DNA of 64,000 nucleotides from Tubulanus polymorphus (GCF_964204645.1 NC_134026.1:23532150-23596149), one strand, 5' to 3'. Counted from the stretch's first letter, positions 1 through 8,991 are shown. The notes: generated from the letters alone by a model not told the origin. Program-made: numbers and translations.

Positions 1-3000
1 ACACATATCAATTGTGGAGTTACTGATTGTCTATGGAGCAGATCCTGGAGTTCCTGATGTGCTAGGACAAACACCAGTCAACTATTCACGGTAACAGTCT
101 TCACATTTCAAATATTACAGAATAATATGAATTTTTCACCTTTCCACACTCTTCTGACTAAAAGTATAAATGCTTTTGTATTTGGAAGCTATGCACAATG
201 AAAACCATCGAATGATATTCAGACATGAATTAGCTACAAACAAAGAAAATGGGTTTTTTCAACTGATTGAACTGCTTATTTCTGTATGGCTATTGATGTT
301 AACATGTTACTACCATCTGTATTACACACTTCAATTTTATTTCATCTATGACAGACCCACAGACCCCAGTTACCGACCTTTACTACAGAAAGTCTGTTAT
401 CGTTGCTTTGTAGCTATATTACAAGTTGTGGTTTGTCATGAATCATATTTGCCTAATTTTTCTTTTTTAAATAGAGCCGAAGGTCATATAGATTTAACTG
501 ATCGGTTGATAGAATGTCAATATGAGCTGACTGATCGTTTAGCTTATTACCTTTGTGGGAGAAAACCAGGTAAGAGCTCAATCCTACTGAAAGCATTTCA
601 TACATCAATTATCTACAATATCATATAAAGTAATTGAGTGCTGGCACCAACCGTCTGAGCGACAAATGTGCATATCTTTTAGATCATAAAAATGGTCAGC
701 ATTTTATCATCCCGCACATGGCTGACAGTAGTCTAGACTTATCAGAACTAGCCAAAGCTGCCAAGAAAAAATTACAAGCTGTGAGTAGTCAATTTCACTG
801 GTTTCAACAATGGTTTTTTAAATGTGCTTGAATTACAACACATTATACGCACATGTATGGTGCTGCCACGTTGTATGATAAGATGAAACTAAGTACCTAA
901 ATCCTTACTTGCAATATTTTTACATATCGTTTGTCATGATTGTATTTCAGTTACCAAATCACTTGTTTGAAGAGTTAGCTATGGATGTTTATGATGAAGT
1001 TGACAGACGAGAAAATGATGCAAGTAAGTTGTCATAGTTGTTTAGTATAATTATCTATTGATATGAGTACTATGATACTTGACACTGACTAATTATTTGT
1101 AATTTTTCAGTTTGGCTTTCAACACAAAATCACAGTACATTAGTAATGGATAGGCAAAGTATTCCATTTTTACCAGTCAACCCAGAACTTTCATCAACAA
1201 GAAATCAGGTATGATTACCCTCATTATTGTCATAAATTGCAATAGGCTTGATCTGATGTCCACACCTTATCTTATTTTAAAATTTCAATTTTTCCCAATG
1301 AAGAAATATCAAATAAGCATTTCGAACATTGATGCACTTACCGGTATTATAAGTTTTGATAGTAGGGTAAGTTAATAAGCTGAAATTTCTTATTCAGGGA
1401 CGTCAAAAACTGGCTCGTTTCAATGCAAGAGAATTCGCTACGCTAGTCATTGATATATTGAGTGAAGCTCGACGAAGGCAGTTTGGTATTTCGAGCCCGA
1501 TTCAATCGCCACGTTCGGACAGGCATGGTAGGTTATACTGTAATGATTCTATAACACTGTTCATTAATATCATCATGCGTGGCTATCAATCAAGAACTGT
1601 CAAGCTTGTATGGTTATTTCTGTGAATGGTATTAGCATCGACTAATGATGTTTTCTGCTTAATGATCATCAAAAAGGGAGCATAAAAATCATGTGTGCCT
1701 CATGCATGTTTATTTGTAGGAAGTGGAAATGCTCCAAGTTTCTCTGCAACTTTTGAATTTGTTTCAAACTGAAATCTTAAACTGGTTAAGTCATTAGTGC
1801 ATTGTGCATCTTTTTGTTTGAAGATCTTTGTCATGTTTGTGTCATATATATTTCTCTCAGACTCTGTGAACGGTGAACTGCAAGATGAACCCCTGTATGA
1901 CAGCGTTCCAGTTGATACCCGTAAGAATTTTTGTTGTTTGAATGTTTGATTGTCTCTATCATAACCTGATCCTGACTGTGATGTTTTCTGCTAAATCTTA
2001 AATTCTCATTAATCAAACCTGGTGAGATTTTCATGGGGAAAAGGTTAGACGTTAGAAATTTATAGTGTAGCGTAATATATCAAATCTAGGATAGATCGGG
2101 AATCGGTATCTGTTCTTGGTCACTTAATCGTATTTAACGTTAATCATATTCTTTTATCTACAGAGATAAAAAGCATCATTATCTGCATCATTTACGTATT
2201 TTCACCAAGTGAATTATTTCAACATTCTCCATCATGTGTTTTCTCTTGAATTATGTGTGATATAAAATTGTTACCCTTAACTGTTTGGTAGGATCATTAC
2301 CGAATTATCCAAAAATGATATCTAGATGTCTTCTTTCTCCTTTGATTTATTTTCTGCATACTTAGACCCTCAGAATGGGAGGCAGTCGGGTTACCATAAT
2401 GCAGTTGACGATGAGCCATTATATGACAGCGTTCCAGCCAGTAAGAATTCATGTCTTCCCGTTGTGTGCATGTTGTTTTTTGTTATGATTTCTGCATGCA
2501 GGACTTAAGATATTTTGCTTTTTAGGCAATCCCTATTTTCAGTTTGGTGTGGATAGCAGATAAGAATTTCAGTGTAGATTGTGTTTCACTTTGAGCACTT
2601 TGTTGACAACCTTTTCTTCAGTATATACATATAGAATTTGGTTCATTTTCACCGGATTTTCCCATGTACGTTTACATCAGCAGAAATTGTGGCTACTTGT
2701 CATTTCTCGTTATTTCTTATCAATAACGTCTTAAGAACAAAAAAGAGTTACGAGGAATTAGAATCTATTATTGAGTTCATAATTGAAAGTATTTAAAAAT
2801 GATAAGAATTAGAGTAAAATACTCGTGCAAGTATTGTACCATATCCTGAATTTGGGTGTTTCTTTACATGAGGTCAGTGCATGGTTGTGAAATACTATAG
2901 ATTTGTGTAGATGATAATATTTGCATTTTTTGCTCTTGATGAAATTGATTGGCAAAAAAGATCAAGTATATTAGCTCATTGTTGTGTTGTTAAGTGAGAA

Positions 3001-6000
3001 ATAATTTCTTAAATGCTGCTTTCATGTATTGCATACTGTTTAGATGCATTTTTAAGATAAGGATATGCAATTACTGATGTGGCCCTTTTGTAAATTGCTT
3101 GTGATTAGATAATATTGTTAAGACAACTTAATTGTCAGAACGAGTGTGAAAAGCTTTTCATGTAATTGCTATGAAATTGTACAATTATACAAAGATGCCC
3201 TATTTATATGTATAAATCATGAAGGGTTTCACGCTGCATGTTAGAACTGTTAGTAATTGGTAAAGTGCCATACCGTAGTTCAACTAACAATAGGGTGTTG
3301 GAGAAAGGCATAGCATGACTGGCTACTAGTACCACTGCTACTACTACTAACCTGGAAGCAAATTTCTAAACACTCACCATTGCCTATATCGCTATTACGA
3401 ACAGTACTGGAGGAAGATGTGTACACGGATGCCATAGATGAACAGAATATTATACACAGTGATTATAGCGAAGTTGAAGTTGGGACAGCTCGGTTAGTTG
3501 CAGCCCCAGAAACAGTTACATCGCTGACCAAGGCAGTATATTCAGAGGAAACTATTGAGGAAGTTGAAGATGATGGTGATGATGATGATGATGAATCACA
3601 TTATGATAGCGTCGCATCTTTGATCGAGGGTTAGTACCGACAGATGACGTCTATATTGGTTCTCTATTATATCGGATCGAGTTTTTATCTGTGCTTGGGT
3701 TAAATTTATTCGAGTTATGAAAAGGGAGAAATTTTTTTCAATAGTTGTAATGATTGTTGTTTAGTTTCTAGTGGCGATGCTTCAAGGGAAAAGGTGAATT
3801 ATGAAGTTTTTGTTGTGCTAGGAAAGTTTATTCACTCCCTATGGTGACATACTGCAGCATTAATATTAACCAGTGGTTACAATTAACCTTTTGACTAAAA
3901 ATGCATCAAGAACATCGGGAACTGCTCCCTGCCATCCTTATTTGTGTGAATCAAGGATTTAAATTTTGTATTTTGCCGCAATCACACAAGAGACAATTTG
4001 GCCCGGATCAGACCCGAGTCAAATTTGGCCCATGTCTAATTAGAGTATGATAAAATTTTTCATCGGGCAAAATTTGGTCTGTTTCTAACTAGCAGGCACT
4101 GACCCATTTGGCACCAGTGAATCACGAATGGTTTGCATGGGCAAAATTTGGCCGCGGTCAAAATCAGTTGTGTGATCGCGACTTGTATTTTCAGCCAATT
4201 CCTTTTTTGTATAAATCTGTACTAGTACACATAGGTGATACGTTTTACTAATCTAATTCCTTTTGTAATTATATCCTGGGCTTTTTAGGTGCTTTTCTGC
4301 TGTAAACATTTCCATGAAATATCATGTTCAGTTTGTTGTGTTCTAAGTGTTTTTAACATTGTGTTAACGCAGTGATTTTTTTGAGTATTTAGATTTTGAT
4401 GGTGTATCTATGCACTATATCATTTTTATAATTTTTGCATTTTACTTTATTTTTGTTAGACTTGCCTATCTATAACAACATAAACTTCTATGGTGTATTG
4501 CCAACAATGGCTGAGGAAGACTCCCAGAACCCAAACTTTGATGGTAGCTCCCCCTGCAATCAATACCTCGATGGTGAGATATTCTTGCATTGGTTATAGT
4601 GCATGACCGTAGATACCCATGCCCTTTGCCTAAAACTAGACATGTTTATTCACCAAACCAATTCCGTTTATGATATGAAAAAAAACCCTACAAAGGTGAT
4701 AGTTGAATGCTAATTTAACCTGCTTGCCAATTGTGCTTTGGTACCCATAAATGAAACATTTTTATGGATTAAGTTAGTGAAAGCACTACTCAAGTTACAT
4801 TTATTTGTATTTCACATAGTTTTGTTCTGCCATTCTCTGAATTTTATGACTAAAAATACCAATTTTCTGTCATTTAATCTGCTATATGCTAGACTTTGAT
4901 GGCTTAAAATGTACTTTTTTATAAATATTTGTTGCTTTTGTTTAGATAATGAGCTCATTGTTTTGTTAATAATCCCATTTATATATATTTTCATAGAACT
5001 GGATGATGTTCTTGCTATTATGTATTCAAAAGTTATGTAAAACGTTTTCAGGCTCGGAGCTTTATATCCACGTCAATATCATCAGTACATGTATAGCCTA
5101 CTATCATTACTAAGCTATATTTGATTGTGTTCATAATACTTGTACTAATATTCGTGTCTCAATTAGCATTATCACTTACAAACAGGACTTCTGAAAACAT
5201 GAAAAGCAGCTGTATGAAGCTAGTTGTGTTCTATGTAAACTGCAGTTAGATCAACTGTGGTTAGAATTTTGGTTGTTGAAGACTGCTGTTTACTCTGATG
5301 CTAATCAACCGGTTTTGATGTTTAGTTTGACCTCTTCTCGGCCAAGTGTTTGGTTAATGGGTGTTACGTTGTTTACAGGGAGTCCCAATGAATTATGTGT
5401 CAATGATAGCAAAATGAAGAAGTCCTTGAGTAACATCAGTGATGATGAGCCGTTGTACGACTCGGTGGCGTCGGACGAAGATTATGGAATGCTACCAAAT
5501 GTGGATAAAACGCGGGCAGCGAAAAAAGATATGGCGACTAGCAACATAGAGAAACAGCCACAACCACCAGGAGAGGTGAGTGAGAAAAATCTGAAATACT
5601 GATCATTTTCATTTTAGTTCATATACCATGAGACTACAATTGGAGATTACTTGTTCGCTAGTATCTTACTTGTAAATACGTACATATAATTCATCTTATT
5701 TGTTGTATCATTATGAAGTGAAGTTTGTTGCTTTGGTTATTTTATGATAAACATAGATCGGACGTGCATGAAATGTAGTAACACGTGTTTATGATAGAAA
5801 GGTCATCACTGAAACCAATATGCTATTATTTTATGATGGATAGACTTATGTATTCTATGTTTCATATTACTGTTACCGCAAAGAATAAATGTGGGTGTGA
5901 TTGGAGAAGTTATTTTCAACTTAATTAGCTATTATTACAAACTGATGAATGTATGTTGCTTTTGATGTCCGATATCGTGTTATTGATGTTGTTATTTTTG

Positions 6001-7500
6001 CTTTAGGAGCTTACTGCTCCTATGAAGGGCAGTACATCCCCAACATCTATGATCTCGTTCACTGAGGTGAGAAAAAAGATGATTACTGTCTGATTGTTTG
6101 CATGTGTTTGGCATGATGCTTCTTGTATCAGATACAGAGCAGAAAAATTAATTAGTTGTAATCATTACTGGAGTGAAGAGATGCATGCTCATTATTCATT
6201 GTCTTTGGGGCTCGATTTCCTGTTAAAAACTCATTTGCTGATATTAGAAGAGTATTTTCTGAATGTCCATAATATGTTGGTACATGCATGAAACCGAATA
6301 TAAATAAATGTTTGTTTTGTCTTTTATTCAATTATCAGAGACGTATTCACATGTTTAGTTCAGTTTACCTCCCAACTGCAAGAAACAGTGTAACCCTAGT
6401 GGGTCTTAAGAGACGGCCAGGGCTTTTTTGTAGGTTGTTGTCACTCATAACCTGACTAAGTTAGCAGAGCTTAGTCCATGTACCGTATGTGTCTTGACAG
6501 CCAATGCCAGGGGTGGTTTGGAACCAGGCTTGGTTCCCAGTCCTCCACTTAATGAACTGAGCTAATTACACACGACCTGGGGCCCTTGAAAAAATATATC
6601 AAATGGGATTTGAACAATTGTGGTTATTTATTATTTGTAGAGTTTAGCCTCATCTGAGCACTCGGATACACCAATTACTCTCGAAGAATACATGGACGTT
6701 AAACGATCACTAGTGACATCAGAAGCCCGAGTAAATCAACTCGTTCAATTAAATACGGAACTGAAACTACAAGTAGCTCAGTTATCACAAACAGTAAGTA
6801 CCTGCACCTAACAACCTCGTGGTTAGCTAGAGATAATCATCTTAGGTGATTTTTTTATGAGAAAAGCTTTGCGTAACTGATAGGAAAGAGTTATTGATCT
6901 GTATGAGCTGTGTGTGTAATTTCGGCGCACTTACTTTTAATTTCTTTTTTTTTTGCACTCGATAGTGTACTGCTAGGAAACACCATGTCTTGCGTGTATG
7001 TCCCTGGCAATTGAGCTGTTGCATGCAGATTTTTTTCTGACAGTTCGATCTATGGTTCGTTTACGCTATATTAGTTTATTGAATGATGAACTTCCTGATT
7101 TAGTGAACGTTAATCACCAATTGAACGAGGATTACATCCTGTGTCTCTTTTTTAGGCTACAATATACCAGTACTACAGTGTGCACTGTTTCAGAACTACA
7201 TAGAACACTATTCCAATATCTATTTTCACATTTGGTGCTGAAAAAATAGCTGACATATTATTAAACTTAAGTTTGCACAACATCCTTTTGGAAAATCATT
7301 TTTATGCGTGAAGTTTTATTTAGGAATGATTTAGTATAGTTATTTTTTTTTGGTTCACATTCACATTTCATGACACTATTTTCATCATTAATCTGTCCCT
7401 TGATGATGAATTTTCCATAATTGCATCATTACTGTCTTGCTCAATTATTAATCTATTACACTGTTGTTTTTCTTTTGTTATATCTGCTGCTATTCTCAGA

Positions 7501-7534
<34 letters not shown>

Positions 7535-8991
7535 TAATGTTCTGTCATTATGTGTGCCCATCATTCATTTTTGAACGTATGAAAATTCTTTGATTTCAGG
7601 TGCAAAGTTTATTACAAGAGAATGCAGCTTTTCGGCGGCTCCAAAAACAGCAAAATAGTCAACACCATCAGATGACAACGACTACACCTGTTGATCAACG
7701 ACCACCATTGTCACCTCAAACGTATACAACATTACCCAATGGGCATAGTCCTGAATCAAATATTCACAGTGTAAAACCTCCTCCAGCCCGTCCACAGTCA
7801 ATGTTTGAAACTAGAGACCAACAACGACCAGTTCCTAAACATCCGAATGTAAGTCACTTTCCCATCAAAAACAAAGCTACTGTTTGTGAATTTGAGTCGG
7901 TATAAATGTTAATTACAATTTTTGCAGGTGTCATTAGCTGAAGAGAATAGTTCTGAATATTCCACCACCAATCAACCGGATCAGGTAGACAATCGTTCGA
8001 TTGATATAGATTGAATAAATCCTAGCAGAAAAAAATATTTGAGATGACTACCCGTACTTGAAGTGTAAAACCAATGACCTATAATTTGATACTTCTGATT
8101 GCAGGTTATGGACAGAAGTGGCCCGAGATTACGAAAATCTAGTGCACCGGCATTAACACCTATTCCACAGGGTACAGATGCAGATTATGATACTCCACCT
8201 AGTCATCGACATACAAGTGATTCAGTTAGTTCAAGGTAATTGAATAAATATGAATTGGTATTTTGAGATTGTAATCTTACATAAAACAGTAACCTGAAAT
8301 CATTTTTAAGTTATTTGTTGATGAGTGGTATATTTGCTTAATCATAGATCTGATAGTAGTGGTCATTTCACATCTGCATCGGATGGTAGTATGACACCTG
8401 GTACTCCGTCACATCCACATCCGCTAGATTTAGAGGAAGACATGCCAACGCAAGAAGATGTCGTCAAGAAAACTGAACGAATCACCAAAAAAATACAAGA
8501 ACTGTTAATTTCCGCTCAAGAAGGAAATCATAATAGGTATTCATCTGTTCGGATTTGTTTGTTACATTTGATTATCATCATCATTTCTATCAAACTCATT
8601 TAGAGTAAATACCGGTAGTGTTCAGGGAAAATTGTTCTGTCTTTTTTGTAGTTATGGGCCTTGTTCAGATAAAATACATTTAGCCGTATGCGAAATGGCA
8701 GCAATATTTCCTCAGGTAAGCGCATGCTAAGATAATTGACTATGTGCTTTCGGTAGAATTAATCAGTAATAATGAATATTTGGATTATATTCACAGAAAC
8801 CGAAGACTGAAATTGTTCAAAACGGACTAAGAGCGCTAACATATAGTGCAGTGCGTTTACAAGAGGAATGTCGCAGTACTCCGATGGATAGTCGTGGAAA
8901 TATAGACTATCGAATAAAAACTCAACAAGTCATTCAATGTGCCTATGACATTGCCAAAGCCGCAAAACAGCTAGTCATGTTATTCCAATAG
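1..8991 (+). CDS. GIT: ARF GTPase-activating protein GIT (GIT1/GIT2 family), 5'-truncated by the window; ankyrin end, Spa2-homology domain, coiled coil and C-terminal paxillin-binding domain
   Basis: Core exons, all GT-AG and phase-consistent: <1-90, 475-569, 683-780, 951-1023, 1111-1208, 1398-1527, 5379-5575, 6007-6066, 6641-6793, 7600-7848, 7928-7984, 8105-8235, 8348-8536, 8652-8715, 8797-8991 (TAG). Translation gives hallmark GIT segments: ELLIVYGADPG, ECQYELTDRLAYYLCGRKPDHKNG, LFEELAMDVYDEVDRRENDA, GRQKLARFNAREFATLVIDILSEARRR, YDSVASDED, EDVVKKTERITKKIQELL, QQVIQCAYDIAKAAKQLV. Confidence 0.96.
1861..1920 (+). CDS. GIT: Candidate GIT cassette exon A (60 nt, phase 1-1): (D)SVNGELQDEPLYDSVPVDT
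   Basis: Acceptor tttctctcag, donor gtaaga, length 3n, open in the GIT frame, repeats the DEPLYDSV motif of exon 5379-5575. Confidence 0.8.
2366..2440 (+). CDS. GIT: Candidate GIT cassette exon B (75 nt, phase 1-1): (D)PQNGRQSGYHNAVDDEPLYDSVPA
   Basis: Acceptor tttctgcatacttag, donor gtaaga, length 3n, DEPLYDSV motif. Confidence 0.8.
3405..3629 (+). CDS. GIT: Candidate GIT cassette exon C (225 nt, phase 1-1): acidic, Tyr-containing, ends DDDDDESHYDSVASLIE
   Basis: Acceptor acag preceded by TACTAAC at 3345-3351, donor gttagt, 75 open codons, YDSVAS motif. Confidence 0.72.
3975..4182. mobile_element. Non-autonomous DNA transposon (MITE), PIF/Harbinger-like, copy 1
   Basis: Terminal inverted repeats GCCGCAATCACAC ... 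GTGTGATCGCGAC, internal AAATTTGGCCC motifs; related copy at 48451-48751 in the opposite orientation. Confidence 0.65.
4460..4573 (+). CDS. GIT: Candidate GIT cassette exon D (114 nt, phase 1-1): (D)LPIYNNINFYGVLPTMAEEDSQNPNFDGSSPCNQYLD
   Basis: Long T-rich tract ending ttgttag, donor gtgaga, length 3n, open frame, TGCATG at 4600. Confidence 0.62.
6390..6570 (-). mobile_element. Degenerate tRNA-derived SINE-like fragment
   Basis: Minus strand reads TAGCTCAGT (A-box-like, 6556-6564) then GGTTCCAAACC (B-box-like, 6515-6525); more GC-rich than the surrounding intron. Boundaries are approximate. Confidence 0.4.
7501..7533. repeat. (CAT)11 microsatellite, intronic
   Basis: Read directly from the sequence. 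Confidence 0.95.

Follow-up and report, generated by a model that had tools for sequence, protein, structure and literature searches.

Does alternative splicing set the number of Nck-type docking sites on GIT, a scaffold protein of cell adhesion? The question is raised by a 64,000-nucleotide stretch of Tubulanus polymorphus DNA (GCF_964204645.1 NC_134026.1:23532150-23596149; hereafter the window), which opens inside a GIT gene on the plus strand whose end lies near position 8991. The Nck site of GIT is single in almost every sampled animal, across vertebrates, insects and molluscs. A preliminary description made from the window sequence had placed four exon-like units, here called A to D, between the exon with the second SHD repeat and the exon with the canonical YDSV site. 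We verified the coordinates of these units, their lengths (60, 75, 225 and 114 nt), AG/GT borders, phase 1-1 and peptides (EPLYDSV in A and B, SHYDSV in C and PIYNNI in D; Table 1). All 16 combinations are open, which is near-automatic for symmetric exons of 3n length. Our data show that A and B are almost certainly real, optional exons, and we judge it slightly better than an even bet that optional YDSV exons let splicing set Nck-type adaptor valency.

We took run X2 as RNA from its GT-AG joints; the run carries no RNA label on record. Contigs of X2 join 13 listed GT-AG introns of the window GIT where those of X1 read through unspliced, while no spliced joints are listed for X1, X3 or X4, and X5 is one short relative-like contig. 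The joint into exon A and the joint from exon B to the canonical exon, both GT-AG, are each carried by one X2 contig (depth 29.7 with 29 letters on the short side, and depth 11.1 with 30 letters, respectively). Loose ends of X2 at 1528 and 5378 (16 and 12 letters) were read as a direct skip from 1527 to 5379; these come from the loose ends listed for the optional region, beyond which there are nine more. A four-isoform database protein cluster matches the window GIT exactly and comprises forms with neither exon (803 aa), with A (823 aa) and with A and B together (828 and 848 aa), exon B being always accompanied by exon A. Isoforms of A and B were thus already present in database annotation. 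The preliminary description had allowed 16 isoforms; three of the 16 combinations were seen, giving one, two or three YDSV motifs per chain. X2 joints enter A and leave B, and the units are not constitutively included as a set. Both included and skipped forms were observed for A and B, as expected of cassette exons, on short contig overlaps from one run. Mutually exclusive use of A and B as tandem duplicated exons was ruled out by their presence together in two isoforms (P0006 and P0128), and a processed-pseudogene origin of the X2 joints by the several isoforms and an unspliced piece.

The longest isoform (P0128) is predicted by Pfam to contain, in order, ArfGAP, ankyrin, two SHD, coiled coil and GIT1_C domains, a set and order that assign the gene to the GIT ArfGAP family. 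Its closest solved structure is GIT2 (6jmt), and the canonical exon aligns with YDSVASDE of vertebrate GIT1/2. Among the proteins listed for a search with the last exon, none beyond these isoforms is identical to it. Upstream of the motif in the canonical exon, X2, X3 and X4 contigs carry a T>C difference at 5396 that replaces Cys with Arg.

To score the motif copies, we built a profile from 56 distinct non-nemertean GIT sites and applied it to 59,728 stop-free 12-mers from the six frames of the window. The four highest-scoring were the canonical site (43.3 bits), B (35.8), A (31.2) and C (24.0), with the next best at 9.9 bits, indicating that the three extra YDSV copies are beyond chance. Over 11 codons, a span selected for its match to the canonical copy, A shows six synonymous and three replacement differences from that copy and B six and two, and in C two codons are identical, seven synonymous and two changed. 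The differences are mostly synonymous, so the likeness lies at the protein level, and the C motif appears to be under protein-level constraint. At the DNA level, a 28-nt stretch of A, B and C defines a single repeat family (86% and 71%) to which the canonical copy does not belong, a pattern suggesting that one cassette was duplicated serially. A and B are 86% identical over the 28 nt with a donor in common, and B is likely a tandem duplicate of A. In the form with both exons, successive YDSV tyrosines are spaced by 27 and 32 residues.

A related arrangement is present in the GIT of a second nemertean, Lineus longissimus (XP_064620290-294), where an optional YDSV cassette of 32 residues, flanked by the two corresponding exons, is present in three of five isoforms. 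This cassette scores 24.7 bits against the profile. The two GIT proteins are about 70% identical and cluster with a support of 0.991 in a FastTree tree (21 sequences, 574 columns), a grouping by which the source of the window is likely a nemertean; a scan of metagenome contigs for the Lineus linker gave no locus. From 406 non-nemertean proteins, a redundant set (the best 120 of 6024, 120 of 261 and 150 of 54,273 matches, plus 27 cluster members), we kept 347 with an SHD2 match followed by no fewer than 60 residues and dropped 59. An acid-preceded YDxV lies within 220 residues of SHD2 in 322 of the 347 and a second site in one, P0320. In that protein, a divergent GIT, a further acidic YDEV follows the canonical site at a distance of 11 residues, which makes it an independent two-site case. 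One site was found in 106 of 107 scored proteins of a mostly vertebrate search set, and two in none, among the matches listed. The same held for all 120 short fragments listed (best 120 of 157), which had one site each and included no further nemertean-like or multi-site sequence. We also scanned 73 genomic loci for unannotated copies; in 65 of them the SHD2 end and the canonical site are both present, and in 35 of these 65 the two are more than 400 nt apart (17 distinct groups). A second site of at least 14 bits was found in none of the 73 loci, including the 35 intron-bearing ones, and the window gives four. Given this rarity and the Lineus cassette, the YDSV expansion is apparently nemertean, in a sample of two nemerteans.

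The Nck SH2 consensus is given as pYDxV(S/A/T/Y)x(D/E), and GIT1 and GIT2 as Nck SH2 partners (PMC2661883, PMC3937095). Src kinases are reported to phosphorylate GIT1 at Y392, which acts through Grb4 (PMC3974724). The core pY-D-x-V is present in A, B, C and the Lineus cassette, and the isoform with A and B holds three YDxV motifs, in line with the nephrin-type count of three or more. Nephrin with three, two or one phosphotyrosines is described as clustering at very different Nck levels, a steep dependence on phosphotyrosine number (PMC4238058), and a motif spacing of about 20 residues is noted for the nephrin and vaccinia A36 platforms (PMC9333988). Dimers of GIT1 and trimers of PIX form condensates, driven by an interaction between the N- and C-terminal parts of GIT1 (10.1101/2019.12.18.881771). 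We propose that tandem duplication of one cassette produced optional exons A and B, and that in each chain the linker separating the SHD repeats from the coiled coil would carry one, two or three copies of YDSV, according to exon choice. A Src-family kinase may phosphorylate the extra tyrosines, as at GIT1 Y392. Each YDSV would likely bind an Nck-type SH2 domain once phosphorylated, and splicing would thereby set adaptor valency. If the mammalian GIT dimer and PIX trimer hold here, one to three sites per chain would mean two to six per GIT dimer on an oligomeric scaffold. We infer phosphorylation, SH2 binding and avidity for the extra copies, and put it at even chances that adaptor valency is the function of A and B. 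We counted in favour the X2 joints and skip, the four isoforms, the motif scores, the A/B/C family, the Lineus cassette and the tyrosine spacing.

Several observations weigh against a role in adaptor valency. The full extended consensus occurs only at the canonical site: A (YDSVPVD) misses S/A/T/Y at +4, B (YDSVPAR) misses +4 and +6, and C (YDSVASL) misses D/E at +6. Phosphorylation and Nck binding of the copies are predicted, and since GIT-PIX forms oligomers in any case, the gain from further sites may be small. The A and B joints come from one contig each with overlaps below the 31-letter bridging rule, the skip depends on the 12- and 16-letter loose ends, and no joint from A to B or from A to 5379 is among those listed in X2. 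One X2 contig is unspliced from 1860 to 2440, through A and B, yet spliced from B to 5379; retention of the A-B intron would meet a stop at 1947-1949, and this contig is either a splicing intermediate or an unproductive form. The database isoforms may share their RNA source with X2 and so may lack independence, and with a single RNA-like run, tissue regulation remains conjecture. The Lineus cassette can be aligned with A, B and C at the motif only, best with C, which leaves a common origin plausible. As to the consensus, a vaccinia A36 peptide without the acid at +6, pYDSVAGS, is used as an Nck-binding peptide (PMC9333988). The linker is coil in the AlphaFold model, whose mean pLDDT of 48.7 overall is poor, and its disorder is weakly supported.

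The cassettes could instead alter partner choice and not partner number, with YDSVP recruiting other SH2 domains (Vav, Src, Crk) or priming a Src-family kinase for the canonical site. A and B carry Pro at +4 and no ASDEDY tail, exon B contributes a YHN, and phospho-GIT2 is reported to be bound also by the SH2 domains of Crk, Src and Vav2 (PMC3681694). However, the pY-D-x-V core and the preceding acidic run are kept in every copy, 12 of the 56 natural single sites in GIT have Pro at +4, and both the Lineus copy and C retain YDSVAS; we consider a change of partner rather unlikely. Somewhat less likely again is that A to D are near-neutral duplicates, frame-keeping copies tolerated at low inclusion in a flexible linker, with C and D decaying or arisen by chance. 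Such an origin would fit the splice sites of C, the weakest of the set, the absence of C and D from every isoform, the skip form in X2 beside the unspliced A-B contig with its stop, and the lack of a second site in 346 of the 347 other listed proteins. It fits less well with motif residues that were held while silent positions turned over, or with Lineus, another nemertean, whose GIT is about 70% identical and retains an optional copy at this position.

We find it improbable that the cassettes, acting as spacers rich in acidic residues, loosen the interaction between the N- and C-terminal parts of GIT or alter GIT-PIX condensation, their tyrosines being incidental. The inserts do separate the N-terminal block from the coiled coil, 25 of the 74 residues of C are D or E, and the interaction concerned is the one described as driving GIT1 condensates (10.1101/2019.12.18.881771), but conservation is focused on the tyrosine motif and not on length or flanks. 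Splicing-set adaptor valency is the reading we favour. A larger claim, that nemertean GIT is a tissue-switched splicing dial of one to four sites per chain (two to eight per dimer) that pushes GIT-PIX past an Nck/N-WASP condensation threshold and couples the scaffold to actin assembly, with Grb2-type sites interspersed, we regard as unlikely.

Units C and D differ from A and B in their evidence. We scored splice sites with a matrix from 13 junctions of the window GIT, using leave-one-out for those 13. The acceptor of C (-1.9) falls under all 13 leave-one-out scores (-0.9 to 11.1) and its donor, GTTAGT, at 3.3 lies near the bottom of the range of the gene (1.8 to 11.3); the acceptor is also uncertain, with other in-frame AGs at 3480, 3504, 3516 and 3546. 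Good splice sites had been attributed to all four units, which does not hold for C or for the acceptor of B (0.3), while those of D are fair. No joint to C or D is listed in X2 or X4 and neither is in any of the four isoforms, which is no proof of absence given one RNA-like run and contigs that drop rare forms. Unspliced contigs span both C (3084-3933) and D (4336-4794), and exon use is not thereby disproved. A codon-usage test has little power at such length: the real exon A and unit D behave alike (6% and 8% of null windows reach them), and the null for C comprises only 42 overlapping windows. X3 and X4 show deeper contig coverage over C, which we disregarded since contig depth cannot rank parts. 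C is likely a rare or decaying exon, and fairly probably a rare third cassette giving four sites; the one to four Nck-type sites first proposed are borne out for one, two and three YDSV motifs, with four unsupported so far.

The Grb2 SH2 consensus is pYxN, and D had been put forward as a Grb2-type exon. D is found in none of the four isoforms and in no listed joint of the one RNA-like run, and has no homologue among 539 proteins or 73 loci. Units like D in length and score arise in 11% of 300 simulated introns, or 1.3% when a YxN, a condition picked after the fact, is also required. That D is an exon thus seems doubtful. Beyond the YNN of D, we found a YxN that the preliminary description had not mentioned, the YHN of expressed exon B; Grb2 binding is putative for both. 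If the C donor were unused, the frame would stop one codon on (3630-3634; G then stop), and this read-through would yield a GIT ending before the coiled coil; there is no evidence that such a form exists. High-copy repeats lie at ~3990-4160, between C and D, and at 6360-6530, with X1 depth >2000 compared to about 40.

Table 1. Exons and exon-like units of the GIT gene in the window that bear on its YDSV motifs.
Feature	Position	Strand	Content	Evidence
Exon with second SHD repeat	1398..1527	+	Phase 1 donor feeds optional region	In 4/4 database isoforms; X2 joints
Exon A, optional	1861..1920	+	20 codons; DEPLYDSVP, Tyr codon 1896	X2 joint 1527>1861; in 3/4 isoforms
Exon B, optional	2366..2440	+	25 codons; YHN (2392) and DDEPLYDSVP, Tyr codon 2422	X2 joint 2440>5379; in 2/4 isoforms
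Unit C, acidic	3405..3629	+	DDESHYDSVAS, Tyr codon 3602	Motif 24.0 bits; weak splice sites
Unit D, exon-like	4460..4573	+	PIYNNI	Fair splice scores 4.9/6.4; unsupported
Canonical exon, constitutive	5379..5575	+	DDEPLYDSVASDEDY, Tyr codon 5456	In 4/4 isoforms
Exon E, optional	6007..6066	+	20 codons; SPTSMISFTE, no Tyr motif	Skipped in X2; in 3/4 isoforms

A fifth optional exon, E, was also new to our analysis. A segment like it is both present and absent among cluster members in eight of nine other spiralian groups (Lineus, Lingula, Octopus, Haliotis, Patella, Owenia, Physella and Batillaria), a pattern that marks this Ser/Thr-rich exon just before the coiled coil as an old spiralian cassette. 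A same-strand gene from 11353 onward begins about 2.4 kb past the GIT stop. From its N-terminal sequence we take it to start like GRK2/3; GIT was named as a GRK interactor. The first exon of this gene had no match in the 73 related loci, most of which are too short to tell.

An optional, multiplied Nck site amounts to a natural series of one, two and three sites on a single scaffold. With such a series it can be tested directly if the choice of exons tunes SH2 avidity and condensate thresholds, a notion put forward in general form in 2012; the reach of the case is limited by a non-model animal with no phenotype attached. The preliminary description knew of no earlier account of the architecture, and we found no published account of multiple YDSV exons in GIT among the top matches in the open-licence literature, while Lineus has a version with one cassette. 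The general principle, splicing of recurring SH2 motifs, is already known, and it is the nemertean GIT instance that we did not find in print.

Compared with known systems, the window GIT is closest in layout to vertebrate GIT1 and GIT2, with the same domain order and canonical YDSVASDE site; GIT1 Y392 is described as working via Grb4/Nck2 (PMC3974724). The vertebrate proteins differ in having one site each, compared to one to three here. GIT2 also has in-frame optional mid-protein exons (regions A-E) and many isoforms, and its described variant loses the coiled coil and dimerisation (10.1101/538223), whereas in the window GIT the optional exons precede the canonical site and add tyrosine motifs. 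With as many as three YDxV motifs, spaced by 27-32 residues, the window GIT resembles the triple YDxV of nephrin, which acts with Nck and N-WASP. Nephrin is a membrane receptor whose valency is varied by phosphorylation (PMC4238058); the window GIT, with no receptor architecture in its domain set, would be a cytosolic dimer in which exon choice sets site number. The Lineus longissimus GIT shares an optional YDSV cassette at the same place and an optional exon E, and differs in that its single cassette of 32 residues ends DDSSLYDSVASQ. Weatheritt et al. (2012) reported an enrichment of alternative exons in SH2-binding and recurring motifs, and stated that changes in motif number can tune avidity (PMC3424572). 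As described, that survey covers annotated motifs, and the window GIT would be a lineage-specific case that arose by duplication of a motif exon.

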